Numbered from the stretch's first letter, positions 1 to 62,344 are shown. The stretch is DNA of 64,000 nucleotides from an uncultured bacterium (GCA_963848965.1 CAWKFG010000001.1:224001-288000); one strand, 5' to 3'. A program made the numbers and translations. The notes: generated from the letters alone by a model not told the origin.

Positions 1-1596
1 GCAGGTATAAATGTTAATACTAGTGATCTAAAGATAGGATCTTCTGCTCTTATGTATGCAGCACAAAACGGTCGTGCTAAAGCTGTTAAAGCGCTTATTA
101 AGGCAGGAGCTGACGTTAGTATGGAAGACAAGGAAGGACAAAATGCTCTCTATATAGCAGTTGATACGCCGTTTAGTATTGACGCTAATACGCTTGATGA
201 GTATGGTTGTCATAAGGAAGTAGTACAAGCGCTTATTGAAGCAGGAGCTGTATTCAAGTCTCCTCATCGTGAAGATATAACTGATGAGCAACAGCAACTT
301 AACAATAATATGACAAATGCTATTTTGCATGGTGATAAGGATACTGTTAAAAAGCTTCTTGATAATGGTTTTGCTTGCAACCAGTTTCTTTTCGATTTTT
401 CTGCGTACGCCTTAGGTAGTGGATGTGAACCTCTTCTTCTTGCCTGTTTTGTAGGAGATGCTTCTTTAGTAAAAGAATTATTAAATCGTAAAGGTGAATT
501 TGATTTTGAAGAAATCTATGATCTGAAAGAGTTAATAACCTTATTAGCAGCTAATGGAAATGCTGAAGTAATAGAGCTTTTACTGACATGGTATAACGAA
601 AGAGCATCTGTTCCTGTAAAGGTAAGTGAGCAAGCTTTATACTTTGCGCTTAGAAATAAGCATGTTGAGCTTGTTAAAAAGTTTGCTGTAGACTGTGAAT
701 TTGATGATTGGCATATGAAGGAGTATGCTGTTTTTACAGGACAGCAAGAAATTGTAAAGAGACTTCTTGAAGCAGGCGCGGACGTTTGTGGAACATATAT
801 TTTTCATTATGCTGTTATGTCTAAAAATTTAGCAACGGTAGCATTGCTTACCCCAACAGCTTTTGCTAGTAATCTCGTTACGAGGCCTTTAAGAGTAAGC
901 GAATTACTAGATACTGTAGTATTAAGTAAGATTTTTAAAAATATCTATTTAGCTGATGGAGAACAAACGATTACTCCAATACAAATTGCACAAAAAGTAC
1001 ATTCTCAAGAACTAGTACACTTCTTACAAGCATGTCTAGATGAGGATCTCAAAGAATATCTTCAAAATCCAGAAGCATATGTTAAAGGGTATCTAGCGCA
1101 GTGCTCTTCTTCAAAAACGTTGGTATATAATAAATTTGGTCAAACGCCGCTTATATGGGCATGTATATTTAATCATAAGAGTATAGTACAGCTTTTACTT
1201 AATCAGCTCCCTGAATGTTTACATGCTGTTGATAGTTATGGCAGAACAGCACTTGTATATGCTATACAATGTGGAAACACTGAGATAGTCTCTTTCTTGT
1301 TAGATGCTTACGAAAAAGAAAATAGCAAAAAAGCTTATGAAGATAAGCGAGTAAGCAGCATAAATTATTTTGATAAAGAAGGTAATAATGCTCTATGCTA
1401 TGCAGCAGCTCAAGGAAACATGAATCTTGTTACGCAGCTTTTAAAAGCAGGTGCTTATCCTACAGCTCAAGCGATTAAGCTTGCTGCAATACATGGTCAT
1501 AAAGAGTTGGTACTAAAGCTTTTGGCTTTAATGAGTGAGTATGCGCGAATTGGAAACCTTCCTATGAAGGGTAAAGAATTTCCTAAACTTTATTAA
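1..1596 (+). CDS. Ankyrin-repeat protein, 5'-truncated by the window edge
   Basis: Frame 1 is open from base 1 (AGINVNTSDLKIGSSALMYAAQNG...). Multiple ankyrin motifs: GQTPLIWAC, YGRTALVYAIQCG, EGNNALCYAAAQG. Confidence 0.9.
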   Translation, partial: AGINVNTSDLKIGSSALMYAAQNGRAKAVKALIKAGADVSMEDKEGQNALYIAVDTPFSIDANTLDEYGCHKEVVQALIEAGAVFKSPHREDITDEQQQLNNNMTNAILHGDKDTVKKLLDNGFACNQFLFDFSAYALGSGCEPLLLACFVGDASLVKELLNRKGEFDFEEIYDLKELITLLAANGNAEVIELLLTWYNERASVPVKVSEQALYFALRNKHVELVKKFAVDCEFDDWHMKEYAVFTGQQEIVKRLLEAGADVCGTYIFHYAVMSKNLATVALLTPTAFASNLVTRPLRVSELLDTVVLSKIFKNIYLADGEQTITPIQIAQKVHSQELVHFLQACLDEDLKEYLQNPEAYVKGYLAQCSSSKTLVYNKFGQTPLIWACIFNHKSIVQLLLNQLPECLHAVDSYGRTALVYAIQCGNTEIVSFLLDAYEKENSKKAYEDKRVSSINYFDKEGNNALCYAAAQGNMNLVTQLLKAGAYPTAQAIKLAAIHGHKELVLKLLALMSEYARIGNLPMKGKEFPKLY

Positions 1597-7819: not shown

Positions 7820-8179
7820 ATGAAGAAATGTCTTATTATGGCTCTAGCTTTAGGAATGGCAGCACCTCTTTTTTCAATGGAACCTGGTCAATCTGGAGTT
7901 TCAAATCCTTTCCGTATAGAACGAGCAAAAAAAAGAGCTATGCTAGAAGCTACAAGGCAACAGCTTATGGCTGTTATTCAGCAGTTGGAAGGTAACCTCA
8001 AAGCACAGCAAGTTCAGACAGTTTTTGGAAGACCAAGACCTGATCTTACTGCTCTACAAACGCAGGTAGCAGTTCTTAGACAACAGCTTGCTGGTGTCGA
8101 AAAAGAGCTTGTTGCTTTAACACAACAAGGCCCTGGTCTAGCTCGTGGACAGCAACAACGTACACAAAGCACTCGATAA
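7820..8179 (+). CDS. Hypothetical secreted Gln-rich coiled-coil protein
   Basis: AAGGAG RBS, signal peptide ending PLFS-ME, heptad Leu/Gln pattern. Confidence 0.75.
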   Translation: MKKCLIMALALGMAAPLFSMEPGQSGVSNPFRIERAKKRAMLEATRQQLMAVIQQLEGNLKAQQVQTVFGRPRPDLTALQTQVAVLRQQLAGVEKELVALTQQGPGLARGQQQRTQSTR

Positions 8180-8368: not shown

Positions 8369-8926
8369 ATGAAAAAGTTTCTTTTGTGTATATCGCTCAC
8401 TATAGGGCTCTATACAAAGGTTGTGGAAGCTGCTGATATAAAATCAGTAGCTGTCTTTCTTGATAATGTTAAACATTTAGTGACTCGAGTAATGAGTGCT
8501 TCGCAAGCGGTTCAAGAAGTTAAAACTTCTTTATCGGAAAAAGATCAAGATATACTTAATAGGGCTGCTAAAGAAGCAGCAGAACCAAAGAAAATATCGT
8601 GGTCGGATACACTTAAAAATGTTCTTGAATATGCAAAGCCTACAACAGATACGGTCATTGGTGGGGTGCGATTTGATGGTACTGAAGCTAAATTTCAACC
8701 GGGGATTATTATAGCGCTACTGAATATGGTAACGTCATTTCCAAAAGCATTGCCTGCTCATGAAAGCTTTAGTGGGGTAAGAAATTCATTTGCACGCGTA
8801 GCGCCAGTGGCTGCCAAACTTAATACTCAAGCACGAACCTTAGCTGTTCGTCTTGCTTATGTGTATACGATTATTACATCATTACAGCAGCTTGCAGCTT
8901 CTTTTTCTCCTAAACCGATAGATTAA
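8369..8926 (+). CDS. Hypothetical secreted protein
   Basis: Signal peptide MKKFLLCISLTIGLYTKVVEA; RBS-like AAGGGGG; no family recognised. Confidence 0.75.
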   Translation: MKKFLLCISLTIGLYTKVVEAADIKSVAVFLDNVKHLVTRVMSASQAVQEVKTSLSEKDQDILNRAAKEAAEPKKISWSDTLKNVLEYAKPTTDTVIGGVRFDGTEAKFQPGIIIALLNMVTSFPKALPAHESFSGVRNSFARVAPVAAKLNTQARTLAVRLAYVYTIITSLQQLAASFSPKPID

Positions 8927-9032: not shown

Positions 9033-9098
9033 TTAAGTATGAGTACGTATATGCGCTCTTAAATTACTAGAAGAGGTAAAGGCTTTATCACATTCATT
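9033..9098 (-). pseudogene. Relic 3' end of a C2H2 zinc-finger gene
   Basis: Minus strand reads [21 protein letters not shown], followed by the same TAAGCAAGAAG 3' flank as intact array genes; out of frame with the upstream ORF. Confidence 0.75.
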
Positions 9099-9954
9099 AA
9101 GCTTGAGGACAGCGGTGCTTATCTAAGTATAGTTGTGCAGAAAAAGTTCTTTTACATTGTTTACATGTAGCTGTCTTTTGCTTTTCATGAGTAGTTTTAT
9201 GCGCTGCTAAATTAGCCGGATTAATGAACTTTTTATCACATTGGACACAGAGGTGCTGTGCTTCTTCTTTCTTATGTAGTGCTGGTTTGTTCTTGATCAG
9301 AATCTCAACCTCCATACTTTCTGAATCTTCATCTGTAAAAGAGGAATCTTCTCTGTCATTTAAATAATAGTCCTCATCGTCTGAAGAGTCGTACTTCTGC
9401 TTTTTCAATGGTCTGGCCTGCTGTACTTTTTTTAATGCCGCCTTATCCTTTGAATTAGTGCTAATCTGTGTGTCTTCTTTGTGAGGATTGTTAGGAATCC
9501 TACGTTTCTGATCTACCGCTTTAGCTAGCTTTTTGCTTGCTTTACTTGTAGAATTCTCGTTGTTTTGCTGACTTCTTACATTGCCTAGTGTTGATACCAT
9601 CCTCTTTACTAATAACATAGGAGACGGTGTTACAGAAGCTGTTAAGTTATTTTGTTTGTAATAGCTGTTATCGCCTTGAGATAGCGGCTGCTCTTGAAAA
9701 TCAGTTGTATATGATTCTTCTTCTGTCTCACTATCCGCGTGCTGCATGTTTTCTTTTTCTTCTGCGTGAAGGATGGTGATGTGTAATTCTAGATCTTCTT
9801 TTTGCGTAAATTGTAAAGAACATTGCTCACATGCGTATGCTAGCTCTTGATTACTCACTAAATCCTTTTGTCCTTCTGAGCATTGTTCCATTCCATAGAG
9901 AGTGGTTACTGTACCCCAGAGCAAAAGCATTACAATCTTATTCATAATTTCCAA
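9097..9954 (-). CDS. Secreted protein with three dispersed C2H2/C2HC zinc fingers and basic and acidic tracts
   Basis: Signal peptide ending LYG-ME; fingers CEQC..HITILH, CVQC..HKTTH, CKQC..HRC; PLKKQK basic patch; DSSDDED acidic tract. Confidence 0.85.
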   Translation of the reverse strand: MEIMNKIVMLLLWGTVTTLYGMEQCSEGQKDLVSNQELAYACEQCSLQFTQKEDLELHITILHAEEKENMQHADSETEEESYTTDFQEQPLSQGDNSYYKQNNLTASVTPSPMLLVKRMVSTLGNVRSQQNNENSTSKASKKLAKAVDQKRRIPNNPHKEDTQISTNSKDKAALKKVQQARPLKKQKYDSSDDEDYYLNDREDSSFTDEDSESMEVEILIKNKPALHKKEEAQHLCVQCDKKFINPANLAAHKTTHEKQKTATCKQCKRTFSAQLYLDKHRCPQA

Positions 9955-10092: not shown

Positions 10093-10797
10093 TTACGTGT
10101 TATGAACTTTTTGATGTATTGTTAATTGACCAGAAGTAATGAAGGTTTTACTGCACTCAGTACATACATATGGTTTTTCTCCTGTATGAGTACGTATGTG
10201 CCTTGTTAAAGTACTGGAATCAGCAAAAGTTTTATCGCATTCATTACATACATATGGCTTTATACCAGTATGAGTACGCATATGTATTGTTAATTGGTCA
10301 GACTGAGTAAAAGCTTTATGACATTCAGTACAAACATAGGGTCTTTCTTCGGTATGAGTACGTACGTGTTTTGTTAAGTCACTAGCAGTAGTAAAAGCTT
10401 TGTCGCATTCAGTACAGACATAAGGCTTTTCACCAGTATGACTACGCATATGTGATGTTAAACTATCAGTTCGAGCAAAAGCTTTATGACATTCATTACA
10501 AACATAGGGTCTTTCTCCAGTATGAGTGTATATATGCCTTGTTAACTTGCTAGAAGTAGCGAAAGTTTTACCACATTCAATACATATATGCTCTTTTTTT
10601 TGTCTCTTATGATTAACAGCAGAGTCAACATCATTTTGAGAAGCGTGAAGACGTTTTCTAGAGAGAATAGGTGTGTCATCAGATATGTCTTCTAGTGCTG
10701 TATCTGGTTGTTGAGTGTTATTAGTACCTCTATCTTCTTGCATAGAATAAATAAAATGAGAAAATAAGCAGAGTAAGAATAAAGAGAGCGTTTTCAT
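10093..10797 (-). CDS. Secreted Krueppel-type C2H2 zinc-finger protein, 6 fingers
   Basis: Signal peptide, RKR-x14-KRQKK, six 28-aa CxxC-x12-HxxxH units with TGEKP-type linkers. Confidence 0.95.
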   Translation of the reverse strand: MKTLSLFLLCLFSHFIYSMQEDRGTNNTQQPDTALEDISDDTPILSRKRLHASQNDVDSAVNHKRQKKEHICIECGKTFATSSKLTRHIYTHTGERPYVCNECHKAFARTDSLTSHMRSHTGEKPYVCTECDKAFTTASDLTKHVRTHTEERPYVCTECHKAFTQSDQLTIHMRTHTGIKPYVCNECDKTFADSSTLTRHIRTHTGEKPYVCTECSKTFITSGQLTIHQKVHNT

Positions 10798-10900
10798 TGG
10801 ATACCTAATGTTTTATTAGAAAACTTATTGTTTAGGTCTTTAAATATAATTATATAGCTTGAAAATAAAAGTGCAAGTAAGAGCACTCAAAGCTTCTTGC
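10798..10900 (-). repeat. Repeated ~103 bp intergenic promoter/RBS cassette of the ZF array, copy 1
   Basis: Near-identical to 11519-11621 and 16792-16894. Confidence 0.9.
10849..10876 (-). promoter_or_regulatory. sigma70-like promoter TTGCAC-N16-TATAAT
   Basis: Read on the minus strand; conserved or nearly so in the other cassette copies (e.g. 11570-11597). Confidence 0.65.
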
Positions 10901-11518
10901 TTAAGTATGAGTATGCATGTGCCTTGTTAACTTACTAGATTCAGCAAAAGCTTTATCACATTCGTTACATACATAAGGCTTTTCACCAGTATGAGTACGC
11001 ATATGTAATGTTAAACTATCAGCTCGAGTAAAAGCTTTATCACATTCAGTACAAACATAGGGTCTTTCTCCGGTATGAGTACGCATATGTTTTGTTAAAG
11101 TACTAGAATTGGTAAAAGCTTTATCACATTTAGTACATATATACGGCTTTTCTCCTGTATGTGTTAGTATATGTTGTGTTAAATTACCAGATTTAGTAAA
11201 AGCTTTATTACATTCACTACATACATACGGTCTTTCTCCGGTATGTGTTAGTATATGTACTGTTAAACTACTAGAATTGGTAAAAGCTTTATCACATTCA
11301 ATACATATATGCTCTTTTTTTTGTCTCTTATGAATAACTGCGGAGTCAACATCATTTTGAGAAGCGTAAGGGCGTTTTCTAGAGAGAATAGGCGCGTCAT
11401 CAGATATGTCTTCTGTTGCTGTATCTGGTTGTTGAGTGTTATTAGTACCTCTATCTTCTTGCATAGAATAAATAAAATGAGAAAATAAGCAGAGTAAGAA
11501 TAAAGAGAGCGTTTTCAT
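10901..11518 (-). CDS. Secreted Krueppel-type C2H2 zinc-finger protein, 5 fingers
   Basis: Leader nearly identical to the 10093 gene; five tandem fingers. Confidence 0.95.
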
Positions 11519-11621
11519 TGGATACCTAATGTTTTATTAGAAAACTTATTGTTTAGGTCTTTAAATATAATTATATAACTTGAAAATAAAAGTGCAAGTA
11601 AGAGCATTCAAAGCTTCTTGC
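11519..11621 (-). repeat. ZF-array intergenic cassette, copy 2
   Basis: Near-identical to 10798-10900. Confidence 0.9.
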
Positions 11622-12827
11622 TTAAGTATGATTACGCATATGCTTTGTTAAATTACCAGCTTGTGCAAAAGCCTTATTACATTCAGCACAAGTGTAAGGC
11701 TTTTCACCGGTATGAGTACGAATGTGCTCTTTTAGTAGATAAGAACGAGTAAAAGCTTTATCACATTCATTACAAACATAGGGTCTTTCATCAGTATGAC
11801 TACGCATATGCTGTGTTAAATTACCAGGTTGTGTAAAGGCTTTATCACATTCAGTACATACATATGGTTTTTCTCCTGTATGACTATGCATATGTATTGT
11901 TAAATGGCCAGACTGAGTAAAAGCTTTGTCACATTCAGTACATACATAAGGCTTTATACCAGTATGAGTACGCATATGTATTGTTAAGGAGCTAGAGTCA
12001 GCAAAGGCTTTATTACATTCACTACAAACATAGGGCTTTTCATCAGTATGAGTACGCATATGCTGTGTTAAATTACCAGATTGTGTAAAGGCTTTATCAC
12101 ATTCACTACATACATATGGTTTTTCTCCTGTATGACTACGCATATGTTTTGTTAAAGTACTGGAATCGGCAAAGAATTTATTGCACTCAGTACATACGTA
12201 TGGTTTGTCACCTGTATGCATACGCATATGTAGTGTTAACTTGCTAGACTCAGCGAAAGCTTTATCACATTCGTTACAAACATAAGGCTTTTCACCAGTA
12301 TGAGTACGCATATGCTGTGTTAAATTACCAGGTTGTGTAAAGGCTTTATCACATTCAGTACATACATATGGTTTTTCTCCTGTATGACTACGCATATGTT
12401 TTGTTAAAGTACTGGAATCGGCAAAGGATTTATTGCACTCAGTACATACATATGGTTTTTCACCAGTATGAGTACGCATGTGTAGTGTTAAATTACCAGC
12501 TTGTGCAAAAGCCTTATTACATTCAGCACAAGTGTAAGGCTTTTCACCGGTATGAGTACGAATGTGCAGTTTTAGTAGATAAGAACGAGTAAAAGCTTTA
12601 CCACATTCAATACATATGTGCTCTTTTTTTTGTCTCTTATCATTAACTGCGGAGTCAATATCATTTTGAAAGTTAGAAGGGCGTTTTCTAGAGAGAATAG
12701 GTGCGTCATCAGATAGATCTTCTAGTGCTGTATCTGGTTGTTGAGTTTCATTTGTGCTAATAGCTTCTTGCATAGAGTAAGTAAAAGGAAAGAATAAGCA
12801 AAGTAAAAATAAAGAGAATGTTTTCAT
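11622..12827 (-). CDS. Secreted Krueppel-type C2H2 zinc-finger protein, 12 fingers
   Basis: ATG at 12827 (ORF track starts at the preceding TTG); signal peptide, RKR..KRQKK, twelve fingers. Confidence 0.95.
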
Positions 12828-12830
12828 CAA

Positions 12831-12930
12831 AGACCTACCATCTTATTGGGAAATTTTTTGAGCAAATATTTAAATATAATTATATAAATTGAAAATAAAA
12901 TTGCAAGTAAGAGCATCCAAGACTTCTTGC
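12831..12930 (-). repeat. ZF-array intergenic cassette, variant copy
   Basis: Shares the AAATATAATTATA..GAAAATAAAA..TGCAAGTAAGAGCA..CTTCTTGC core (plus strand); closest to 15822-15921. Confidence 0.85.
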
Positions 12931-13734
12931 TTAAGTATGAGTACGCATATGCCTTGTTAAATTACTAGAAGTTGTGAAAGCGTTATCACACTCGGTGCAC
13001 TTATAGGGCCTTTCTCGTGTGTGACTATACATATGTGCTATTAAGTGGCTAGAAGTAGTAAAAGCTCTATTGCATTCATTACATACATACGGCTTTTCTC
13101 CTGTATGTGTTAGTATATGCTTTGCTAAGTTACTAGACTCTGCAAAAGTTTTACCACACTCGTTACATACATACGGCTTCTCACCCGTATGAGTACGCAT
13201 ATGTATTGTTAATTTACCAGATTGTGCAAAAGCTTTATCGCATTCATTACATTTATAAGGTTTTTCTCTTGTATGCGTACGTATATGCTTTGTTAAATCG
13301 CCAGATTCAGCAAAAGCTTTGTTACATTCAGTACATATATATGGCTTTTCGCCTGTATGACCGCGCATATGTAATGTTAAAGAACTAGACTGAGTAAAAG
13401 CTTTATTGCATTCAGGACATATATAGGGCTTTTCTCCTGTATGAGTACGCATATGTACTGTTAAATTTCTAGAGGTTGTAAAAGCTTTATCACATTCATT
13501 ACACTTAAAGGGCCTTTCCCCTGTATGCGTACGCATATGTATCGCCAACTTACTAGGAACACTAAAAGCCTTATTACATTCAACACATATATGTCGTAGC
13601 TTACTTCTTTTATGTCCTCTTTCTTCTTGAGACTCTATCTCACTCTCTTCTCTTTCTCTTTTTGTAGTCTCTCTTTCCATTGCATTGAGCAGACTTACTA
13701 TGAAAAAAAGAGTAAATATCACTATTTTTCTCAT
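12931..13734 (-). CDS. Secreted Krueppel-type C2H2 zinc-finger protein, 8 fingers, distinct leader
   Basis: Signal peptide ending LNA-ME; KR..HKRSK basic clusters; eight fingers. Confidence 0.95.
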
Positions 13735-13825
13735 ATATTATTCCTTATTATAATATGTAAGGTATCATTAGACTTATGGCAGCATTCCTCACATAGAGCT
13801 TTATACAAAGGTAAGCCTAGAATTA

Positions 13826-14542
13826 TTATTTTGAAAACACGAAATCGAGACTTCCAGAATGGGCCTTGAGCGTAAATGAATTAACTACCCATTGCTTTTT
13901 TGCATCAGCAGAAACTATTTGAAGTTGCTTGCTAAGACGGTGTTTAAGGATATGAACCATATTTTGCGGGTCTCTATCTTTATCTTCATAAAGCTTGCCA
14001 ATAGTAAGATGCATATCAAAATAAGGAAACTGGCCTAAGCTGTCCTGTATCGATTGCGCCACATGAGTAAGCGCAGGTGAAGAAGGAAATCGTAGTACAA
14101 TATAATAAAAATTCTTTTTAGGTATCCCCTTGTAGACATTGCCTTTGTCTCTATCTCCTTTAAAGCAAGTAAATTCTACTGCTTTAAGGTTTTCCGTAAG
14201 ATCAATAGCCCTTGTTTCTTTAGCAATCTTTTCAAGAGCTGGAATATTATATTTCTGCTTTTCCAATAACTGCTTAAGTGTTAACTGAGCATCTGTAATA
14301 TACGCAAGCGATATGTGTGAAGCATACTGGGGAGCATCAAATAGATATTTTATATGCCCTGGTTTGGTCTTTTGTGCTTCATTTTCATGATCAATAATCT
14401 CTTTGACTTGCTCTTGGACTACATGCACAAATTCTTGTACCACCGTAGGTGGCTCAATTAATACGATGACTCCACCAAAAAGATTACTCATGGTTATACA
14501 GAAAATAAGCATTAAAATTAACTTACAATGTGAGCTATACAT
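13826..14542 (-). CDS. Putative secreted 2H phosphoesterase-family protein
   Basis: Two Hx(S/T) motifs (SHISLAY and MHLTIGK) about 100 aa apart; likely ATG at 14542 gives a hydrophobic signal-like N-terminus. Confidence 0.7.
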   Translation of the reverse strand: MYSSHCKLILMLIFCITMSNLFGGVIVLIEPPTVVQEFVHVVQEQVKEIIDHENEAQKTKPGHIKYLFDAPQYASHISLAYITDAQLTLKQLLEKQKYNIPALEKIAKETRAIDLTENLKAVEFTCFKGDRDKGNVYKGIPKKNFYYIVLRFPSSPALTHVAQSIQDSLGQFPYFDMHLTIGKLYEDKDRDPQNMVHILKHRLSKQLQIVSADAKKQWVVNSFTLKAHSGSLDFVFSK

Positions 14543-14664
14543 GGTATATCCTAGATAAATGATTCTATTTAATATATTCTCTATATTACATTTTAATGAT
14601 AATTTGTCAATAATATTAATGGTTAAAGGTATGCTGACGCAAAGCAAATAAAGTAGTGCCCTAC

Positions 14665-14757
14665 TTACTGTTGAGTCTCATTGGAGATAGTAGTTTCTTG
14701 CATAGAATAAGTACAAGGAACGAATATGAAAAGTAAAAGAAGATAGAATATTTGCAT
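14665..14757 (-). pseudogene. Truncated ZF-family gene (leader only, 30 aa)
   Basis: MQIFYLLLLFIFVPCTYSMQETTISNETQQ* is homologous to the ZF leaders; a degenerate promoter cassette lies upstream at ~14758-14830. Confidence 0.8.
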
Positions 14758-14862
14758 AGTGCTTAGTCTCTTATTAGAAAGGTTATTGTATAAATGCTTA
14801 AATATAATTATATAATTTGAAAATAAAAAGTAAATGGTTGTCAGAGATAGTACTTTACAGTT

Positions 14863-15032
14863 TTACTTCTTATGAGTGAGCATATGATTTTTAAATTACC
14901 AGATTGAGTAAAAGATCTATCGTACTCAGTGCATACAAAATGCTTTTCTCTAGTATGGGTTCGCATGTGCTATTTCAGTTTATCAGAACGAGCAAAAGCT
15001 TTGTTATATTCAGTACAGACGTAAGGTTGCTC
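14863..15032 (-). pseudogene. Two decayed zinc fingers beyond the stop of the 15033 gene
   Basis: In-frame continuation reads EQPYVCTEYNKAFARSDKLK*HMRTHTREKHFVCTEYDRSFTQSGNLK, then a frameshift before HMLTH. Confidence 0.85.
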
Positions 15033-15818
15033 TCATGTATGAGTATGCATGTGCCTTGTTAAATTACCAGATTGTGCAAAGGCTTTATTGCATTCACTAC
15101 AAACATAAGGTTTTTCACCACTATGGGTACGTATGTGTTGTGTTAAAGTACTGGAATCGGCAAAGAATTTATTGCACTCAGTACATACGTATGGTTTTTC
15201 ACCAGTATGAGTACGTACGTGTTTTGTTAATTTACCAGCAGTGGTAAAAGCTTTGTCGCATTCAGTACATACATAAGGCTTTATACCAGTATGAGTACGC
15301 ATATGTTTTGTTAATTGGCCAGACTCGGCAAAAGCTTTGTTGCATTCAGTACATGCATAAGTCTTTTCACCGGTATGACTACGCATATGTGATGTTAAAC
15401 TATCAGTTCGAGCAAAAGCTTTATCACATTCAGTACATACATAAGGCTTTATACCAGTATGAGTATGTACGTGTTTTGTTAAGTCACCAGCACTAGTAAA
15501 AGCTTTGTTGCATTCAGTACATACATAAGGCTTTTCACCGGTATGACTACGCATATGTCGTGTTAAACTATCAGAACGGGTAAAAAGTTTATCACATTCA
15601 GTGCAGGCATATTCTTTTTTCTGTTTCTTTTGATTAACCGGAGATTCGATATCATTGTGAGCAGAATAAAGCCGTTTTTTAGGTAATATGGGTATCTCAT
15701 CAGATAGGTCTTCTGTAATAGACTTATCTTGTTGAGCCTCATTGGCGCTAATAGCTTCTTGCATAGAGTAAGCAAAAGGAAAGAATAAGCAAAGTAAAAA
15801 TAAAGAAAACGTTTTCAT
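15033..15818 (-). CDS. Secreted Krueppel-type C2H2 zinc-finger protein, 7 fingers
   Basis: ATG at 15818; signal peptide, KKR..KKQKK, seven fingers; ends at a TGA where the linker Gly codon is expected. Confidence 0.95.
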   Translation of the reverse strand: MKTFSLFLLCLFFPFAYSMQEAISANEAQQDKSITEDLSDEIPILPKKRLYSAHNDIESPVNQKKQKKEYACTECDKLFTRSDSLTRHMRSHTGEKPYVCTECNKAFTSAGDLTKHVHTHTGIKPYVCTECDKAFARTDSLTSHMRSHTGEKTYACTECNKAFAESGQLTKHMRTHTGIKPYVCTECDKAFTTAGKLTKHVRTHTGEKPYVCTECNKFFADSSTLTQHIRTHSGEKPYVCSECNKAFAQSGNLTRHMHTHT

Positions 15819-15821
15819 CAA

Positions 15822-15921
15822 AGACCTATCATCTTATTAGGAAATTTTTTGAGTAAATATTTAAATATAATTATATGGCATGAAAATAAAAGTGCAAGTA
15901 AGAGCATTCAAAGCTTCTTGC
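15822..15921 (-). repeat. ZF-array intergenic cassette, variant copy
   Basis: Similar to 12831-12930 and 10798-10900. Confidence 0.85.
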
Positions 15922-16791
15922 TTAAGTATGAGTACGCATGTGCTTTGTTAAACCACTGGAATCGGCAAAAGCTTTACCGCATTCACTACATATATAAGGT
16001 TTTTCACCAGTATGAGTACGCATATGTACTGTTAATTTACTAGAGGTGCTAAAAGCTTTATCACATTCAGTACAGACATAAGGCTTTTCACCAGTATGAG
16101 TGCGCATATGTATTGTTAATTGGTCAGACTGAGTAAAAGCTTTATGACATTCATTACAAACATAGGGTCTTTCTTCGGTATGAGTACGTACGTGTTTTGT
16201 TAAGTCACTAGCAGTAGTAAAAGCTTTGTCGCATTCAGTACATGTATAAGGCTTTTCACCAGTATGAGTACGCATATGTACTGTTAATTTACTAGAGGTG
16301 GTAAAAGCTTTATGACATTCAGTACAAACATAGGGTCTTTCTCCGGTATGGGTACGTACGTGTTGTGTTAATTCGCCAGCAGTAGTAAAAGCTTTGTCGC
16401 ATTCAGTACAGACATAAGGCTTTTCACCAGTATGACTACGCATATGTTTTGTTAAACTATCAGTTCGAGTAAAAGCTTTACTACATTCGTTACATACATA
16501 AGGCTTTTCACCAGTATGAGTGTATATATGCCTTGTTAACTTGCTAGAAGTAGCGAAAGTTTTACCACATTCAATACATATATGCTCTTTTTTTTGTCTC
16601 TTATGATTAACAGCAGAGTCAACATCATTTTGAGAAGCGTGAAGACGTTTTCTAGAGAGAATAGGTGTGTCATCAGATATGTCTTCTAGTGCTGTATCTG
16701 GTTGTTGAGTGTTATTAGTACCTTTATCTTCTTGCATAGAATAAATAAAATGAGAAAATAAGCAAAGTAAGAATAAAGAGAGCGTTTTCAT
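15922..16791 (-). CDS. Secreted Krueppel-type C2H2 zinc-finger protein, 8 fingers
   Basis: Leader and first finger almost identical to the 10093 gene; eight fingers. Confidence 0.95.
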
Positions 16792-16894
16792 TGGATACCT
16801 AATGTTTTATTAGAAAACTTATTGTTTAGGTCTTTAAATATAATTATATAGCTTGAAAATAAAAGTGCAAGTAAGAGCATTCAAAGCTTCTTGC
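16792..16894 (-). repeat. ZF-array intergenic cassette, copy 3
   Basis: Near-identical to 10798-10900. Confidence 0.9.
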
Positions 16895-17848
16895 TTAAGT
16901 ATGAGTACGCATATGCCGTGTTAATTTGCTAGACTCAGCAAAAGCTTTATAACATTCATTACATATATATGGTTTTTCGCCTGTATGACTATGCATATGT
17001 TTTGTTAAAGTACTTGAATCGGCAAAGAATTTATTGCATTCATTACAAACATAAGGTTTTTCACCAGTATGAGTACGCATATGTACTGTTAATTTACTAG
17101 AGGTGGTAAAAGCTTTGCTACATTCATTACAGACGTATGGCTTTTCATCAGTATGAGTACGAATATGTACTATTAATTTACTAGAGGTGGTAAAAGCTTT
17201 ATCACATTCAGTACATGCATAAGGCTTTTCACCAGTATGAGTACGCATGTGTAGTGTTAAATTACCAGCTTGTGCAAAAGCCTTATTACATTCAGCACAA
17301 GTATAAGGCTTTTCACCGGTATGAGTACGCATATGTAATGTTAAAGAACTAGACTGAGTAAAAGCTTTATTGCATTCAGTACATATATAAGGCTTTTCAC
17401 CAGTATGACTACGCATATGTAATGTTAAACTGTCAGCTCGAGCAAAAGCTTTATCACATTCAGTACAAACATAAAACTTTTCACCAGTATGAATACTTAT
17501 ATGTTTTGTTAATTGGCTAGACTGAGTAAAAGCTTTATCACATTCGTTACATACATAAGGTTTTTCACCAGTATGAGTGTATATATGCCTTGTTAACCTG
17601 CTAGAGGTAGCGAAAGCTTTACCACATTCAATACATATGTGCTCTTTTTTCTGTTTCTTTTGATTAACCGGGGATTCGATATCATTGTGAGTAGAATAAA
17701 GCCGTTTTTTAGGTACTATGGGTATCTCATCAGATAGGTCTTCTGTAATAGACTTATCTTGTTGAGCCTCATTTGTGCTAGTAGCTTCTTGCATAGTATA
17801 AGCTAAAGGAAAAAATATGCAAAGTAAGAAAAGAAAGAACATTTTCAT
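16895..17848 (-). CDS. Secreted Krueppel-type C2H2 zinc-finger protein, 9 fingers
   Basis: Start chosen at ATG 17848 (MKMFF) by alignment to paralogues; signal peptide, KKR..KKQKK, nine fingers. Confidence 0.95.
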
Positions 17849-18059
17849 AGTGCCCATTATCATATTAGAAAATTTATTGTGCAAATGCCTGTCTATAATT
17901 ATATAATTTAAAAATAAAAATGCAAATGCGTGGTTTCAAGATGTGTATACTATAAGCAATCAGGTGTAGAAAAAAAGAAAGAATACTTATTCTTGCTATT
18001 TGTTAAAAGATCTTGGGATACTACCTATGTAAAGAGTTCTATTAAAGGGAGAGCTAGCA

Positions 18060-18482
18060 ATGAGGCATGGACTGCGAGAAGAGATTTTAGAAGCTTGTAA
18101 TAAGTGTATTGTAAGTTGTGAAGAATGTGTAAAATTAGCGCGCCGTTGCTTGGGTACTTGTGAATCATCAGAAGCATCTGCTTGTAAAGAGATGGTTCAA
18201 AAGTATATTGAACATTGTAAAAAATGCATTGAAGCATGTAGAGCGTGTATAGATATATGTAATGAAGGTATTAAGCTTGCTGAAAATGATGAAGAAGCCC
18301 ACTTTTTACAAAAATGTGTAGAAGCTTGTGGTGACTGTATTACTGCATGCCAAACAAGCATTGATAATTGTTCTGTACAAGTAAACTGCATACAGGCTAC
18401 AAAAGAATGTATAGAGCTCTGTAACGAATGTATATCTGCTTGTGATGAATGCATTGAGCATTTAGGCATTAGAGGATTGTAA
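18060..18482 (+). CDS. Cys-rich four-helix-bundle metal-binding protein (Csp3/DUF326-like)
   Basis: 23 Cys in 140 aa in repeated CxxCxxxCxxC helical motifs; no signal peptide; GGGAG RBS. Confidence 0.8.
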   Translation: MRHGLREEILEACNKCIVSCEECVKLARRCLGTCESSEASACKEMVQKYIEHCKKCIEACRACIDICNEGIKLAENDEEAHFLQKCVEACGDCITACQTSIDNCSVQVNCIQATKECIELCNECISACDECIEHLGIRGL

Positions 18483-59353: not shown

Positions 59354-62344
59354 ATGTTAAAAGTCATAGGGAACCTCGTGCAATTGAGATTTTTGTTTAC
59401 GTTTATACTAGCTGCTACAAGTACTTTTCCACTTTTTAGTATGGAAAAAGTTTTTAATACTTTTAATACTAAAGAAGAGGATCGTCAGCAGACTAGTCAG
59501 GTATATGGTGAGACAGAAGAAGAATATATAGAGAAAATAGAGTCCTATTATAAAAATCTGCCCTCAGATACTCTACTTCAGCGATTCTCGATGTCTTTTT
59601 TTTCTATAACAGAAAAGTTATTGGTATCTGCTATTACTTATAAAATGGCAGAAGCATATTTAAAAGCAACTTTTGAGCCAGTTACTCCTCTTCTTAATAA
59701 ATTTGGAGATTGTACTGCTTTAATGCTTGCATGTCTTATTGGAGATAGGACATTGGTAACTCTTTTTCTTAGTGCAAAAGCTGACGTTAATGGGGCTAAT
59801 AAACTTGGCTGGACAGCTCTTATGCTTGCAGCACGAAAAGGGAACGTAGAGCTGGTAAAACAGCTACTCAATGCAGGAGCAAATAGTAATGTGCAAGTAC
59901 CACACTCAGGTTGGACTGCTTTAAACCTTGCAATAAAAAATGGACACAAAGATGTAGTCGCATTACTTCTTGATAAAGGAGCAGATGTTTCTTTGAGGTC
60001 TTTAGATAGAAAAAGTGCTTTAAACCTTGCTGCACAGTATGGGTACAAAGATATAGTAGAAATGCTTCTTGAAAGAAAAGTACTTTTAGAAACTAAAGAT
60101 GGAGAAGAAGCTACTCCGTTACTGCGAGCTATAGAAAAAGGACATAAAGAAATAGTCTCTTTATTGCTTAACCATGGTGCTAATGTGGATGCTACATGCC
60201 TTATTAAACAAAGAGGTAGCAATACAGCATTGATACTTGCAGCACGAGCTGGTAATGAGCACATAGTTGATTTGTTACTCAAGCGAGGTGTTTTTGTTAA
60301 TGAATGTAATAGCCAAGGGCAAACACCAGCTACATTTGCAGGGCTTACAGGAAATGAAACTATTTTGCAAAGACTCTTAGATGTTGGGTCTTCTACTCAA
60401 GACATTAAAACGCAGGCATTATTGGGAGCTGCTTTCAAAGGTCATAGAGGTATGGTAAGTAGGTTACTCAAGCAAGGAGTTTCTGCTAACATAAAAGCAT
60501 CCGTTAATATAAAAGCTATGAATGAAGATCCTCTTGATGAGGCTTTACTAAGCTGTTTAGAAGAATATAGAGGACATGAGAGTGCTTTAACGCTTGCTGT
60601 ACAGGGTGGACATAAAGATATAGTAATACTACTTCTTGAGGCAGGTGCTGATGTTAACTATAAGAATGAGCATGGTATTACTCCCTTATTAATTGCAATA
60701 AAAAAAGGGGATAGGGATTTAGTAAAATTACTGCTAGGTCGTGGAGCTTCATTGAATATAGAGGCTGATGTAACCACAAAAAAAGACAATAGAGATTTTT
60801 TTGATGAAATGTTTGATGATGCTGATTTAATCCCTTCAGATAGAGCAAAGCGTAGAAATAAGGATCTTCCTGAGGCTTTAAAGGAACAAAAGAATGCTAT
60901 AATGCTTGCTGTACAGAGTGGACATAAAGATATAGTAATATTACTTCTTGATGCGGGTGCTGATGTTAACTATAAAAATGAGCGAGGAGTTACTCCCTTA
61001 TTAGTTGCAATAGAAAGAGGCGATAGAGATTTAGTAAAATTACTGCTAGATCGTGGAGCTTCAGTAAGTATATGCGACAATAAAAAAGCTACAGCTTTTA
61101 TCTACGCAGGTAGAGCAGGACATATAGAGGTATTACAAGACCTTTTAATGTGGTGTGGAGATAAAGGGACAGCTAAAGTTGAGGCTCTATTTGGTGCAAT
61201 TTATGCTCATGATACTTATCTTATAAATACATTACTTAGTATGAAAACAGATGTTACTGCAAAAAACCAAACGGGCTTTACTACATTGCACACAAGTGTA
61301 GAGACGAGATTGGCTAAAGAAACAGTAGCACTTCTTATTGATGCTGGTGCAGATGTTAATGCTCAGGATGATAATGGCTGGACTCCTTTAATGTATGCAG
61401 CTAGTGGTTGCTACCAAGAATTAGTATCATTACTTGTTAATCGCGGAGCTGATTGTAGTATTAAAAATAGCAAGGGTGATACTGCTTTAATAGTAGCTCT
61501 AAAGGGGTGGAAAAGGTTGGATCAGTGTAATAAACATGAAAATCCTACAGAAACGGTTAGGATTCTTCTTGAAAGAGAAACAGATAACCATATTCTAGAA
61601 AAACATAGAGGTTGTATACTTAATCGAAACAGGAACCACGGTCATCAACTTCTTTCATTATTCATTGCAAAAGGTATGATACTTACTCCTTTACCTACAG
61701 AGCAATGGCCACCGGTTCAGCTTTATCAAAGCCATTTTACAGAGGGCGAGTATTACGAAACTCGAGGTGGAGACTCTATAACGATGGATGCTCTTTGGGC
61801 TAAACTGTTATCATTGTTAGTGCAAGAACCCGAGGTAAAAAAGTATTTGTCTGATGCTTGTTCTGTTAATAATGAGATGCTAAAGGGATTAGATCTAATC
61901 TATCGTAGTCCAAGGGGGCATACCCTTCTTATGGTAGCATGCATGCTTGGGCATACCGAAGTTATTAAAGGGCTTAAAGATCATGTAAGTAAAGAATATT
62001 TAAATATTGTGGATGATTATGATTATTGTGCTCTTGATCATGCCTTTAAATTTGGCAAAACTGATGCTGCTATTGCCCTTATAGAAACTTATGGAAACTA
62101 CCTTGATTATTTAAAGCAAGATTCAAATTTATTTGAGATAGCTATAGACCTTGATAGCTTAAAGCTTGTTAATGTACTTTTAAAAGCTGGTCTCAGGCCT
62201 ACTGTTAAGGATTTAGAGTATTCAGCTGCTACAGGGCGTCTATTTATTATGTTTAAATTACTTATTGCTATCTCAAACAATGATCCTTACTTTATTGCTC
62301 ATCCTTATATAAGAAGGTGTTTTAAGAATATTCAACCCTTTTGA
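59354..62344 (+). CDS. Large secreted ankyrin-repeat protein
   Basis: Signal-like N-terminus ending PLFS-ME; many ankyrin repeats (GWTALMLAARKG, GITPLLIA, GWTPLMYAA). Confidence 0.92.
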   Translation: MLKVIGNLVQLRFLFTFILAATSTFPLFSMEKVFNTFNTKEEDRQQTSQVYGETEEEYIEKIESYYKNLPSDTLLQRFSMSFFSITEKLLVSAITYKMAEAYLKATFEPVTPLLNKFGDCTALMLACLIGDRTLVTLFLSAKADVNGANKLGWTALMLAARKGNVELVKQLLNAGANSNVQVPHSGWTALNLAIKNGHKDVVALLLDKGADVSLRSLDRKSALNLAAQYGYKDIVEMLLERKVLLETKDGEEATPLLRAIEKGHKEIVSLLLNHGANVDATCLIKQRGSNTALILAARAGNEHIVDLLLKRGVFVNECNSQGQTPATFAGLTGNETILQRLLDVGSSTQDIKTQALLGAAFKGHRGMVSRLLKQGVSANIKASVNIKAMNEDPLDEALLSCLEEYRGHESALTLAVQGGHKDIVILLLEAGADVNYKNEHGITPLLIAIKKGDRDLVKLLLGRGASLNIEADVTTKKDNRDFFDEMFDDADLIPSDRAKRRNKDLPEALKEQKNAIMLAVQSGHKDIVILLLDAGADVNYKNERGVTPLLVAIERGDRDLVKLLLDRGASVSICDNKKATAFIYAGRAGHIEVLQDLLMWCGDKGTAKVEALFGAIYAHDTYLINTLLSMKTDVTAKNQTGFTTLHTSVETRLAKETVALLIDAGADVNAQDDNGWTPLMYAASGCYQELVSLLVNRGADCSIKNSKGDTALIVALKGWKRLDQCNKHENPTETVRILLERETDNHILEKHRGCILNRNRNHGHQLLSLFIAKGMILTPLPTEQWPPVQLYQSHFTEGEYYETRGGDSITMDALWAKLLSLLVQEPEVKKYLSDACSVNNEMLKGLDLIYRSPRGHTLLMVACMLGHTEVIKGLKDHVSKEYLNIVDDYDYCALDHAFKFGKTDAAIALIETYGNYLDYLKQDSNLFEIAIDLDSLKLVNVLLKAGLRPTVKDLEYSAATGRLFIMFKLLIAISNNDPYFIAHPYIRRCFKNIQPF
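60592..61063 (+). repeat. Internal 160 bp direct duplication in the ankyrin gene
   Basis: 60592-60751 and 60904-61063 are highly similar at the DNA level (offset 312 bp). Confidence 0.85.

Follow-up and report, generated by a model that had tools for sequence, protein, structure and literature searches.

To our knowledge, tandem arrays of C2H2 zinc fingers count as an invention of eukaryotes, and the TALEs as the sole bacterial family of modular DNA-reading effectors. Ros/MucR proteins, which are bacterial, have a single finger within a larger globular domain and act as cytoplasmic regulators, without TGEKP linkers or an export leader. Several described systems have much in common with the genes considered below. 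In PRDM9 and the clustered vertebrate KRAB-type C2H2 genes, the finger is an 84-bp repeat whose scaffold is highly uniform and whose variation is centred on the DNA-contact residues, fingers are gained, lost and reshuffled through unequal recombination, and tandem clusters grow by duplication (PMC3890296; PMC2443715). TALEs evolve by substitution of specificity residues, by recombination of their N- and C-terminal regions and by deletion of repeats (PMC5512977). MoHTR1 and MoHTR2, which the pathogen Magnaporthe oryzae secretes and which localise to the nucleus of its host, have a C2H2 zinc-finger domain behind a signal peptide (PMC12488382). Finally, in Chromulinavorax destructans, which replicates in the host cytoplasm, signal peptides are found on 44% of CDS and on 78% of ankyrin proteins, and these eukaryote-type domains behind a signal peptide were proposed to be secreted, host-manipulating effectors (PMC6561590).

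The locus described here has features of all of these. Seven intact tandem zinc-finger genes occupy positions 10093-17848 on the minus strand of the window, the whole 64,000-nucleotide stretch of DNA that was analysed, and encode 55 classical C2H2 fingers (6+5+12+8+7+8+9, in order from gene 10093 to gene 16895; Table 1). The cluster is part of a 643-kb contig in a 5-contig genome and adjoins tilS and gyrB. The nearest named relatives of the GyrB protein are Candidatus Dependentiae / Babeliaceae (68-72% identity), which places the source genome in the Dependentiae (TM6), the phylum of C. destructans. From this contig context and the GyrB relatives, the genes are bacterial and not contamination.

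Table 1. Features of the zinc-finger gene cluster in window positions, with genes numbered in order of transcription.
Feature	Position	Strand	Composition	Remarks
Gene 1	16895..17848	-	leader, basic motif and 9 C2H2 fingers; type-B' head	zf-C2H2 E 6e-65
Gene 2	15922..16791	-	type-A head and 8 fingers	finger type map E A B D B G D.
Gene 3	15033..15818	-	type-B head and 7 fingers	TGA at a linker Gly codon ends the array
Two decaying fingers	14877..15032	-	Cys to Tyr changes, internal stop	downstream of the 15033 TGA
Dead head remnant, eighth family member	14665..14757	-	leader and about 12 residues, then stop	
Non-family ORF, 273 aa	13826..14647	-	unrelated to the finger genes	interrupts the cluster
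Gene 4	12931..13734	-	divergent head and 8 fingers	F3 (QSSSLTL) matches 16895 F4
Gene 5	11622..12827	-	type-B leader with type-A linker and 12 fingers	internal 252-bp (3-finger) periodicity
Gene 6	10901..11518	-	type-A head and 5 fingers	
Gene 7	10093..10797	-	type-A head and 6 fingers	head 0.99 identity to 15922
Recombinant finger, 10093 F3	10339..10422	-		
Junction module	10517..10930	-	upstream gene's last ~30 nt, 103-nt spacer, head and F1	
Single-finger shared tract	12457..12560	-	11622 F2	counterpart 17226-17329 = 16895 F5
Neighbour gene, distant relative	9097..9945	-	leader of the same type and 2 degenerate, unlinked C2H2 fingers	outside the shuffling set

All seven ORFs have complete heads and tails and are separated by regular spacers of 100-103 nt. 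Each has its own promoter-like spacer, and in that of the junction module a TTGCAC-N17-TATAAT sequence is found. The ATG at 17848 lines up with the start codons of the other genes and is likely to be the true start of the 16895 ORF, which ORF calling extends to a TTG at 17884. Gene 12931 is the oldest-looking member of the family, and no Pfam match was found for the 273-aa ORF beside it. At the end of the 15033 array, the usual CAT ACT GGT GAA AAG CCT TAT is replaced by CAT ACA TGA GAG CAA CCT TAC, while the region around the dead head has 81% identity to the head of gene 1. This nonsense-truncated array end and the dead head indicate gene loss at the locus, and with its seven intact genes, one dead head and two dead fingers it is a birth-and-death family.

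The identity of the fingers themselves as classical (Krueppel-type) C2H2 fingers is clear. The C-x2-C-x12-H-x3-H spacing is present in 55 of 55, as are the invariant C, C, F, L, H and H residues, F and L being those of the hydrophobic core. All 48 inter-finger linkers, of seven residues and TGEKP type, fit the permissive pattern H[TS]x[EIDV][KR][PTF], with HTGEKPY as consensus and a period of 28 residues. In a Pfam profile search all seven proteins match zf-C2H2 and zf-H2C2_2 (E 1e-37 to 1e-112), scoring 124-300 bits for PF00096 (cut-off 25.2) and 138-360 bits for PF13465 (cut-off 40). Among solved structures the top matches are arrays bound to DNA, namely ZFP568 (4e-100) and then CTCF, Aart and PRDM9 (5v3g, 5egb), and the predicted fold is accordingly the zinc-dependent beta-beta-alpha finger that would bind DNA in the major groove; an AlphaFold model built from a single sequence was of poor quality, with a mean pLDDT of 59.4. 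The arrays have no recognisable effector domain, and no homologue of the head region was found outside the source genome.

Membership in the TALE, KRAB-ZFP/PRDM9 and Ros/MucR families was rejected. The repeat is a 28-residue C2H2 finger, predicted to bind zinc and to read ~3 bp, a fold unrelated to the 33-35-residue helical TALE repeat, which reads 1 bp through its repeat-variable di-residue. Among the best 25 Pfam families listed per protein there is no KRAB, SSXRD, SCAN or PR/SET domain, N-terminal or otherwise, as would be expected of a KRAB-ZFP or PRDM9 protein, and the genes further differ from these in being bacterial, in their putative N-terminal export leader, in the absence of introns and in having a sigma-70-like promoter for each gene. 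Ros/MucR is likewise absent from the best 25 families listed, and 5-12 tandem fingers behind an export leader stand against its one Cys2His2 site; what is shared is a bacterial protein with such a zinc site and, if the arrays here bind as predicted, DNA binding (PMC12491435). MoHTR1 and MoHTR2 differ in coming from a eukaryote, a fungus. MoHTR2 is a protein of 110 aa with one zinc-finger domain, compared to 5-12 fingers here, and the available text makes no mention of a recombining tandem family (PMC12488382).

The first-pass annotation had claimed that the same recognition helices recur in different orders in different genes, and parsing of the ORFs confirmed every case: DSSTLT (10093 F5, 11622 F3/F6, 15033 F6, 16895 F8), QAGNLT (11622 F2/F12, 16895 F5), ESSKLT (10901 F5, 11622 F5, 16895 F9), RADSLTL (10901 F4, 16895 F3), RTDSLT (10093 F2, 15033 F3, 15922 F2), QSSSLTL (12931 F3, 16895 F4) and the TASDLTK-QSDQLTI pair (10093 F3-4, 15922 F5-6). 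The near-identical tract it had reported as extending to synonymous sites is equally real, with 12457-12560 and 17226-17329 differing at 1 of 104 bases. Chance does not produce this. Identical 7-residue helices are found in 15 finger pairs, while shuffling residues within helix positions gave a mean of 0.80 and a maximum of 6, and none of the 5000 shuffles reached 15. Between genes, 29 pairs are identical at positions -1..5, 23 of them at different finger indices; nine pairs have 0/24 nucleotide differences in the helix block, and helix-identical pairs have 0.925 of their scaffold bases in common compared to a background of about 0.78.

How the helices came to be shared is seen from the arrangement of the fingers. 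When all were placed in a tree as 84-bp units, they grouped by helix type across genes and not by gene, as the shuffling proposal implied, and on scaffold alone the nearest neighbour is in the same gene for only 13 of 55. The type maps read EABG.. for 10093, EABDBGD. for 15922, E.AJFDDCH for 16895, IFCA.CA..AIF for 11622,.BA.BC. for 15033, ...AH for 10901 and ..J..... for 12931. One could suppose that helices are shared because genes and fingers were duplicated long ago, and that they were kept similar by purifying selection and codon bias and never exchanged between paralogues. The scaffold is indeed constrained (omega 0.29 in 16 independent close pairs), codon usage in this AT-rich genome is biased, and 10093 and 15922 are largely explicable as a recent whole-gene duplicate pair. 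Nevertheless we regard this explanation as extremely improbable. Type A precedes F in 16895 and follows it in 11622, and within one gene pair identity falls from 99% to 60-75% at finger borders. Genes 12931 and 16895, with heads that are unalignable (0.47), have a finger in common at 0.92 identity (for 11622 and 16895 the values are 0.74 and 0.96). The same codon is used at 0.75 of scaffold sites, far above the 0.48 expected from genome codon usage; Leu is TTA in 52 of 55 fingers against a genome share of 26%, and Arg is CGT in 39 of 41 against 27%. Scaffold codons are homogenised.

The ends of the shared tracts are abrupt. Flanks in the same register are 25-40% mismatched, and for the 104-base tract the single mismatch inside compares to 23/84 and 35/84 in its flanks, a contrast drawn from tracts picked post hoc. 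A second tract, 13364-13434, is 97.2% identical over 71 bases to 17328-17398 (12931 F3 and 16895 F4). Within 11622, 12023-12218 repeats as 12275-12470 (95.9%) and 11646-11727 equals 12486-12567 at 82 of 82 bases. In 10093 F3, bases 1-39 are identical to 15922 F3 and bases 7-84 to 15922 F5. It is a hybrid of the two, the footprint of a two-finger unequal crossover, and matches exactly the F3 x F5 product of a 15922-like array; this finger also speaks against the account by old duplication alone. Gene 10093 is a recent copy of a 15922-like gene with two fingers fewer. Clustering by helix type, abrupt tract ends and this hybrid together support the mechanism first proposed, in which the 84-bp repeats recombine unequally or undergo gene conversion. 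Such exchange may be ongoing, as the first-pass annotation also had it.

Exchange is not limited to single fingers: it also involves head and junction modules and, below the level of the finger, helix blocks, a range that the first-pass annotation had missed, as it had the bacterial origin of the DNA and the export leader. The tail-spacer-head junction module is present in three copies of 98-99% identity: that at 10517-10930 recurs at 16511-16924 (414 bp, 98.6%) and at 11417-11643 (215-227 bp, 98-99%). At the other end of the scale, 13 finger pairs have at most 3/60 scaffold differences but 8-13/24 in the helix block. The 24-nt block is as divergent as between fingers paired at random, on scaffold DNA that is uniform across all genes. 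These patterns show that the finger repeat serves homologous recombination both inside single genes and from gene to gene. Whole fingers and blocks of 2-3 fingers have been duplicated, deleted and moved out of register, and new genes arise by copying of tail-spacer-head junctions. Such recombination can only be of the RecA type and mitotic, unlike the meiotic recombination of PRDM9.

Short reads do not easily resolve 8 kb of repeats that are 75-99% identical, and ORFs would survive mis-joins that are in frame, so the mosaic could in principle be an artefact of in-phase mis-joins or collapse among the 84-bp units. This is very unlikely given the 643-kb contig in a 5-contig genome, the seven regularly spaced ORFs with complete heads and tails, and the decay features typical of real loci (the TGA with its degenerate fingers, and the dead head). 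Moreover, two independent Dependentiae assemblies have the same architecture. One (G078) has six tandem genes with leader and array, in which 15 finger pairs of at least 0.9 identity occur at shifted positions, again sharing out of register; the other (G077) has five.

Recombination is accompanied by a particular pattern of variation. The PRDM9-like signature that had been suggested was found, with entropy maxima at helix positions h3, h6 and h-1 on a scaffold of homogenised codons, and in three genomes variation is concentrated at these canonical base-contact positions. In the comparison of helix and scaffold substitutions, contact-site pN is 0.338 and scaffold pS 0.151, a ratio of 2.2, in the same 16 close pairs. 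As pS at the contact codons is also high (0.39), this excess may partly represent old helix blocks on homogenised scaffolds and not fresh positive selection. By the finger code, the re-assorted arrays would have new DNA specificities.

The remaining question is where the proteins act. In order, they have a hydrophobic leader ending in x-[S/G/A]|M-[Q/E], an acidic stretch, a basic RKR-x14-KRQKK motif and the 5-12 fingers. The basic motif, conserved as [SP][RK]KR...K[RK]QKK, directly precedes finger 1 in 6 of 7 genes; its spacer is 14 residues, while that of the textbook NLS consensus is 10-12. The genome has 14 C2H2 ORFs with more than one finger, and every one begins with the leader. Among ORFs of at least 100 aa, leader and cleavage-like motif (a -3/-1-type site) are found in 119 of 1502, compared to 8 of 1239 at an internal control position. 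Twenty leader ORFs sampled at random comprised 8 ankyrin, 2 LRR, 1 MYND only, 1 C2H2, 1 AAA and 7 with no Pfam match. The same leader precedes ankyrin, LRR and MYND proteins, and signal peptides likewise precede the ankyrin proteins of C. destructans, with the difference that the ankyrins there are protein-binding repeats and the modules here are predicted to read DNA. Zinc-finger proteins go unmentioned in that account (0 occurrences of 'zinc finger' or 'C2H2'; PMC6561590). The genome has genes for signal peptidase I and for three secretins, and a search of it for a VirB4-type T4SS found none.

From the export leader and the NLS-like motif we infer secreted, host-nucleus DNA-binding effectors, candidate nucleomodulins that would act on host chromatin, with secretion, nuclear import and DNA binding all deduced from sequence. 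The leader would drive Sec export and be cut by signal peptidase I, the protein could leave the cell via a secretin-type channel or in vesicles, and the basic motif would carry it into the nucleus of the host protist, where each array would read 15-36 bp of host DNA. Recombination and selection on contact residues would keep generating new target specificities. A rather unlikely but serious alternative accepts the genes and their shuffling and places the target elsewhere: RNA, protein, a co-infecting virus, organelle DNA, the bacterial surface or periplasm, or the bacterium's own genes. The lack of an effector domain fits this, C2H2 fingers can bind RNA and proteins (PMC12774644), and a host mitochondrion wraps the replication body of C. 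destructans (PMC6561590). Variation focused on base-contact positions, TGEKP-type linkers as in DNA-wrapping arrays, solved relatives that are DNA complexes and a basic motif right before finger 1 all point back to nuclear DNA, and the export leader speaks against a regulatory role inside the bacterium. On balance we consider it probable that this is a birth-and-death, recombining Dependentiae family of exported C2H2 arrays that serve as host-nucleus effectors and in which new specificities are generated.

The family may therefore function like the TALEs of Xanthomonas (also RipTALs and Bats) without being one of them. Both are bacterial multi-gene families and, if export and binding here are as predicted, exported modular DNA binders in which each repeat reads a few bases; all three modes of TALE evolution are also found in the finger family. 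The leader, however, is Sec-type and not a type III signal, no activation domain is recognisable, and the host is presumably a protist instead of a plant. Such a protein would be a functional analogue of a TALE built from zinc fingers. The stronger version, in which the Dependentiae independently built a TALE-like weapon from exported, nucleus-targeted polydactyl C2H2 families, with cassettes continually re-assorted and positions -1, 3 and 6 tuned to targets in the protist host genome, we put forward tentatively, at somewhat less than even chance.

Among the open-access papers searched, none was found linking C2H2 fingers to Dependentiae, TM6 or Babeliales, or to bacterial nucleomodulins or eukaryote-like endosymbiont proteins. 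Genes of this kind, with linked fingers (PF13465), occur in 75 of 261 Dependentiae genomes, about one in four, and in 0 of 14 control genomes. Here, then, is a bacterium in which finger arrays of eukaryotic type, preceded by a putative export signal, form a multi-gene family that recombines, with evolutionary signatures as in PRDM9 and TALEs. If the reading as a TALE-like weapon is true, bacteria would have a second natural class of DNA-targeting effectors that are modular and programmable. Should the proteins enter the nucleus of the host, they would offer a handle on how uncultured Dependentiae control their protist hosts and a natural experiment in zinc-finger specificity evolution in a haploid, RecA-only setting, and their predicted binding sites might help to identify unknown hosts.

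Seven intact C2H2 zinc-finger genes, named here by their lower window coordinates, stand in tandem in the window and follow a single plan in which a hydrophobic leader is succeeded by an acidic stretch, a basic motif (together the head) and finally 5-12 classical C2H2 fingers joined by TGEKP-type linkers. The C-x2-C-x12-H-x3-H spacing is found in all 55 fingers (55/55), and the seven proteins lie far over the Pfam cut-offs for both zf-C2H2 (E 6e-37 to 1e-92) and zf-H2C2_2 (E 2e-41 to 7e-112). The closest solved structures are DNA-bound arrays, led by ZFP568 (4e-100) and followed by CTCF, the designed protein Aart and PRDM9. Intergenic spacers are regular at 100-103 nt and have in common a stop and a short hairpin as well as a promoter-like TTGCAC-N17-TATAAT; a promoter consensus scan flagged only the two closest matches (12906-12879 and 17926-17898).

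Features of the zinc-finger cluster and related loci. Positions are those of the window unless a genome and contig are named; G000 is the genome of the window, and G077 and G078 are other Dependentiae genomes. In the type maps, fingers run from F1 onwards, letters are finger-unit clusters at an identity of at least 0.88 and a dot is an unclustered finger.
Feature	Position	Strand	Detail
Seven intact tandem C2H2 genes	10093-17848	minus	ORF listing
Two decaying fingers after the TGA of 15033	14877-15032	minus	Cys-to-Tyr changes, internal stop
Dead head	14665-14757	minus	surrounding region 81% identical to 16895 head; abuts unrelated ORF
Junction module copies	10517-10930 and 16511-16924		414 bp, 98.6%
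Junction module copies	11417-11643 and 16690-16916		227 bp, 98.2%
Junction module copies	10696-10910 and 11417-11631		215 bp, 99.1%
Type map, 10093			E A B G..
Type map, 15922			E A B D B G D.
Type map, 16895			E. A J F D D C H
Type map, 11622			I F C A. C A.. A I F
Type map, 15033			. B A. B C.
Type map, 10901			... A H
Type map, 12931			.. J.....
Cluster L031	G078:C28:2567-8053		independent cluster, 6 leader + polydactyl C2H2 genes; out-of-register finger sharing as in the window
Cluster L032	G077:C2:157-3897		independent cluster, 5 leader + polydactyl C2H2 genes
Three secretin-domain ORFs in a row	G000:C4:767163-774663		1153, 818 and 796 aa

The genome (1.73 Mb, 5 contigs, GC ~36%), of which the window covers C1:224001-288000, belongs to the Dependentiae, a phylum described as obligate intracellular parasites of protists (PMC6561590, PMC12172432). 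The tilS and gyrB genes directly adjoin the cluster, and the nearest named relatives of this GyrB are from Candidatus Dependentiae / Babeliaceae (68-72% identity); a further relative, at 92% GyrB identity, is on a 129-kb contig (P0122). Related zinc-finger loci occur in a TM6 MAG and in another bin. The locus is therefore bacterial, and eukaryotic contamination is ruled out by these neighbors and by the Dependentiae affinity of GyrB. Zinc-finger proteins of animals, 36-59% identical, make up most of the matches in a full-length protein search. Since consensus-like fingers match everywhere, such matches are uninformative as to a donor. In a sequencing-run index, the single run with words of the window is a soil metagenome (contigs; word share 0.07), and no RNA runs were listed. 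No sister strain was found among 18 metagenome loci matching a query of leader plus F1, in which the finger part alone (residues 63-97) was matched.

Several other genes lie in or near the cluster. A 273-aa ORF inside it (13826-14647, minus strand) has no Pfam match; visual inspection shows two H-x-[ST] motifs (HISLAY, HLTIGK), a possible resemblance to 2H phosphoesterases. The gene directly upstream of the cluster (18060-18482, plus strand) encodes a Cys-rich 140-aa protein with a DUF326 repeat (PF03860, E 2.5e-6) and overlaps the terminal part of tilS, which lies on the opposite strand. A paralogous pair, one member of which is at the cluster edge (9097-9945, minus strand) and the other at C1:78219-79064 of the same genome, combines a leader and two unlinked degenerate C2H2 fingers with a long low-complexity middle. 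The GyrB of the window is present in a collection of 5.8 billion proteins in which no self-matches were seen for the seven zinc-finger proteins; these may be missing from the gene calls of the source annotation.

The first-pass annotation had described the same recognition helices recurring in different orders in different genes, and a finger parse of the seven ORFs recovers every recurrence that it named. Fifteen finger pairs have the same seven-residue helix throughout; shuffling residues within positions yields 0.80 such pairs on average, and none of 5000 shuffles reaches 15. Identity at positions -1 to 5 is found in 36 pairs, often with a difference at position 6 only; 29 of these are between genes, and the finger index differs in 23 of the 29. 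Nucleotide identity averages 0.74 over all 1485 unit pairs, each unit being one 84-bp finger, and is at least 0.90 in 27 pairs and at least 0.95 in 7. When all 55 units were placed in a maximum-likelihood tree to ask whether genes or helix types group together, units clustered across genes by helix type (11 of 52 inner branches starred; e.g., QAGNLT 100/98, QSSSLTL 100/97, DSSTLT 99/91). Clustering by helix is the outcome set beforehand as supporting, not refuting, the idea of exchangeable cassettes. With the helix codons dropped, the nearest neighbor is in the same gene for only 13/55 fingers, and mean scaffold identity (the unit minus its 24-nt helix block) is 0.787 for fingers of one gene and 0.778 for fingers of different genes. 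Scaffold and helix identity are uncorrelated in a Mantel test (r = 0.03; 1470/5000 permutations as high). Only the youngest copies retain a link between the history of the helix and that of its scaffold.

Recombination, and not old duplication alone, probably made this pattern. The mechanism originally proposed, unequal recombination or gene conversion across the 84-bp repeat, is supported by uneven divergence, abrupt tract ends, a hybrid finger and copied junctions, and it may be ongoing. Genes 11622 and 16895 have a head identity of 0.74 and a best finger pair at 0.96, while 12931 and 16895 have heads at 0.47 and one finger pair at 0.92. The 104-base tract reported earlier with a single difference was recounted at one mismatch (1/104), compared with 23/84 and 35/84 in its same-register flanks. 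Two further tracts end as sharply, with 2/153 mismatches inside and flanks of 23/84 and 17/84, and with 0/82 inside and flanks of 45/84 and 29/84. Because the tracts were chosen after the fact, the tract-versus-flank p-values are illustrative, though the strongest (4e-13, 2e-16) would hold under any reasonable correction. The hybrid is 10093 F3, in which bases 1-39 are identical to 15922 F3 and bases 7-84 to 15922 F5. This exact double identity identifies it as the crossover product of two type-B fingers with a loss of 168 bp (two fingers). Within 11622, a three-finger repeat (252 bp, 95.9% identity) and a stretch identical at 82/82 bases linking the first and last finger pairs are found.

Each of the three occurrences of the junction module spans the ~25 nt that close one gene, the spacer behind it, and the head and F1 of the gene that follows. 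Unequal crossing-over between the arrays of neighboring genes would yield such copied modules, and junction copying is a route to new genes. The heads are themselves mosaic, as in 11622, where the leader is of the type-B head class and the linker region of type A. Genes also die: 15033 terminates at a TGA in place of a linker glycine codon, and this, together with the decaying fingers beyond it and the dead head, makes the cluster a birth-and-death family.

The scaffolds are too uniform in DNA to be accounted for by codon bias. Over 16 conserved codons, the same-codon fraction reaches 0.75 versus 0.48 expected from genome usage; for example, TTA encodes Leu+4 in 52/55 fingers (26% share genome-wide), ACA encodes Thr+5 in 49/49 (36%) and CGT encodes Arg in 39/41 (27%). 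Thirteen finger pairs have at most 3/60 scaffold differences yet 8-13/24 in the helix block, for which the all-pair average is 9/24. These helix-block differences, which include multi-base codon changes and silent ones, are unlikely to stem from recent point mutation. The pattern is consistent with short conversion tracts that homogenize scaffolds and halt where the helix block diverges; helix blocks that travel as cassettes would be an equivalent description. The suggested comparison of dN/dS between helix and scaffold was made in 16 independent close pairs, as contact codons are saturated across all pairs (pS 0.68). In these pairs, pN at contact positions -1, 2, 3 and 6 is 0.338 versus a scaffold pS of 0.151 (ratio 2.2), and scaffold omega is 0.29. 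The four contact codons hold 52/86 non-synonymous differences, versus an expected share of 0.167, and amino-acid entropy peaks at helix positions 3, 6 and -1. Since contact-codon pS is itself 0.39, part of this excess may be old diversity and not new selection.

Similar genes are found elsewhere in the phylum. PF13465 (two linked fingers) is detected in 75/261 Dependentiae genomes at E <= 0.001, 23 of them over the curated cut-off, and in 0/14 control genomes; the 15922 protein as query matched 9/40 relatives. Proteins with both leader and array are encoded at further Dependentiae loci. The six tandem genes of G078 contain 41 fingers (mean identity 0.74; 15 pairs at least 0.9); among these pairs, two genes share one finger at 84/84 bases, and ETSTLNS-QIGALTI recurs as a pair, at F6-7 in one gene and F3-4 in another. 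The five tandem genes of G077 have 2 pairs at 0.9 or more. In both clusters genes overlap or abut (e.g., 3765 / 3772). When 155 units of seven loci are placed in one tree, they group by genome (7 label changes; minimum 6, shuffled mean 86), and therefore each lineage amplified or homogenized its own fingers. Outside the phylum, an animal-associated Endozoicomonas MAG has leaderless multi-finger C2H2 ORFs on a 3-kb contig, which could be host DNA wrongly binned, and a Nitrosarchaeum chromosome has a two-finger 65-aa ORF.

Judging from their architecture, we infer that the seven proteins could be exported effectors. A hydrophobic leader opens 14/14 ORFs of the genome with at least two C2H2 motifs, linked arrays being confined to this cluster, and the end of the leader reads x-[S/G/A]|M-[E/Q]. 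Leader plus motif is found in 119/1502 ORFs of at least 100 aa (~8%) versus 8/1239 at an internal control position; examples of the end are LYSME, LYGME and FAME, and the window has such ORFs at 7820-8179, 8369-8926 and 59354-62344. A random sample of 20 leader ORFs (fixed seed, zinc-finger cluster genes left out) comprised 8 ankyrin, 2 LRR, 1 MYND-only, 1 C2H2 and 1 AAA protein and 7 without a Pfam family. The leader thus looks like a lineage-specific signature of a secretome or effectorome. In 6/7 genes [SP][RK]KR, ~14 residues and K[RK]QKK directly precede finger 1, a putative bipartite nuclear localization signal by the consensus for such signals. The genome encodes signal peptidase I and three large adjacent secretins, which is unusual for a genome of 1.7 Mb and gives a candidate outer-membrane exit for leader-bearing proteins; a VirB4-type ATPase was not found in this 88.7% complete genome. 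In the cultured relative C. destructans, the share with a predicted signal peptide is 44% among CDS and 78% among ankyrin proteins, replication takes place in the host cytoplasm and effector export via Sec has been proposed (PMC6561590).

Residues 1-72 of the head gave no match in a word-index search, and an exhaustive phmmer search of 1.84 billion representative proteins with a 69-residue head gave three at E <= 1e-3: an ORF of the same genome (C1:123806-124066), a repeat protein (P0241) and a third protein (P0243). No convincing homologue outside the genome emerged from the metagenome scan, the word index and the two phmmer matches examined, the ORF and P0241. The ORF, the one convincing head homologue among these, is a solo one-finger relative of the family; its head is homologous at 49% identity and it carries the motif KKRQKKE, but it has no ATG ahead of the leader and is possibly a relic. 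Single-sequence AlphaFold gave the 10901 protein a mean pLDDT of 59.4.

The likeness to PRDM9 arrays and TALE repeats drawn at the outset holds for the mode of evolution, which the cluster shares with both and with clustered vertebrate zinc-finger genes. Published work describes a coding minisatellite under positive selection at DNA-recognition positions for the PRDM9 array (PMC3890296), growth through tandem duplication for clustered vertebrate genes (PMC2443715), and evolution by specificity-residue substitutions, terminal-region recombination and repeat deletion for TALEs (PMC5512977). Secreted C2H2 nuclear effectors are known in a fungus, where MoHTR2 has a signal peptide and one C2H2 domain (PMC12488382). 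We found no C2H2 fingers tied to Dependentiae, TM6 or Babeliales in the open-access papers searched; apart from unrelated work, a wider search of these gave just remarks that zinc fingers are enriched in Kistimonas. New with respect to the known systems are a bacterial producer, polydactyl arrays, a Sec-type leader and a recombining multi-gene family.
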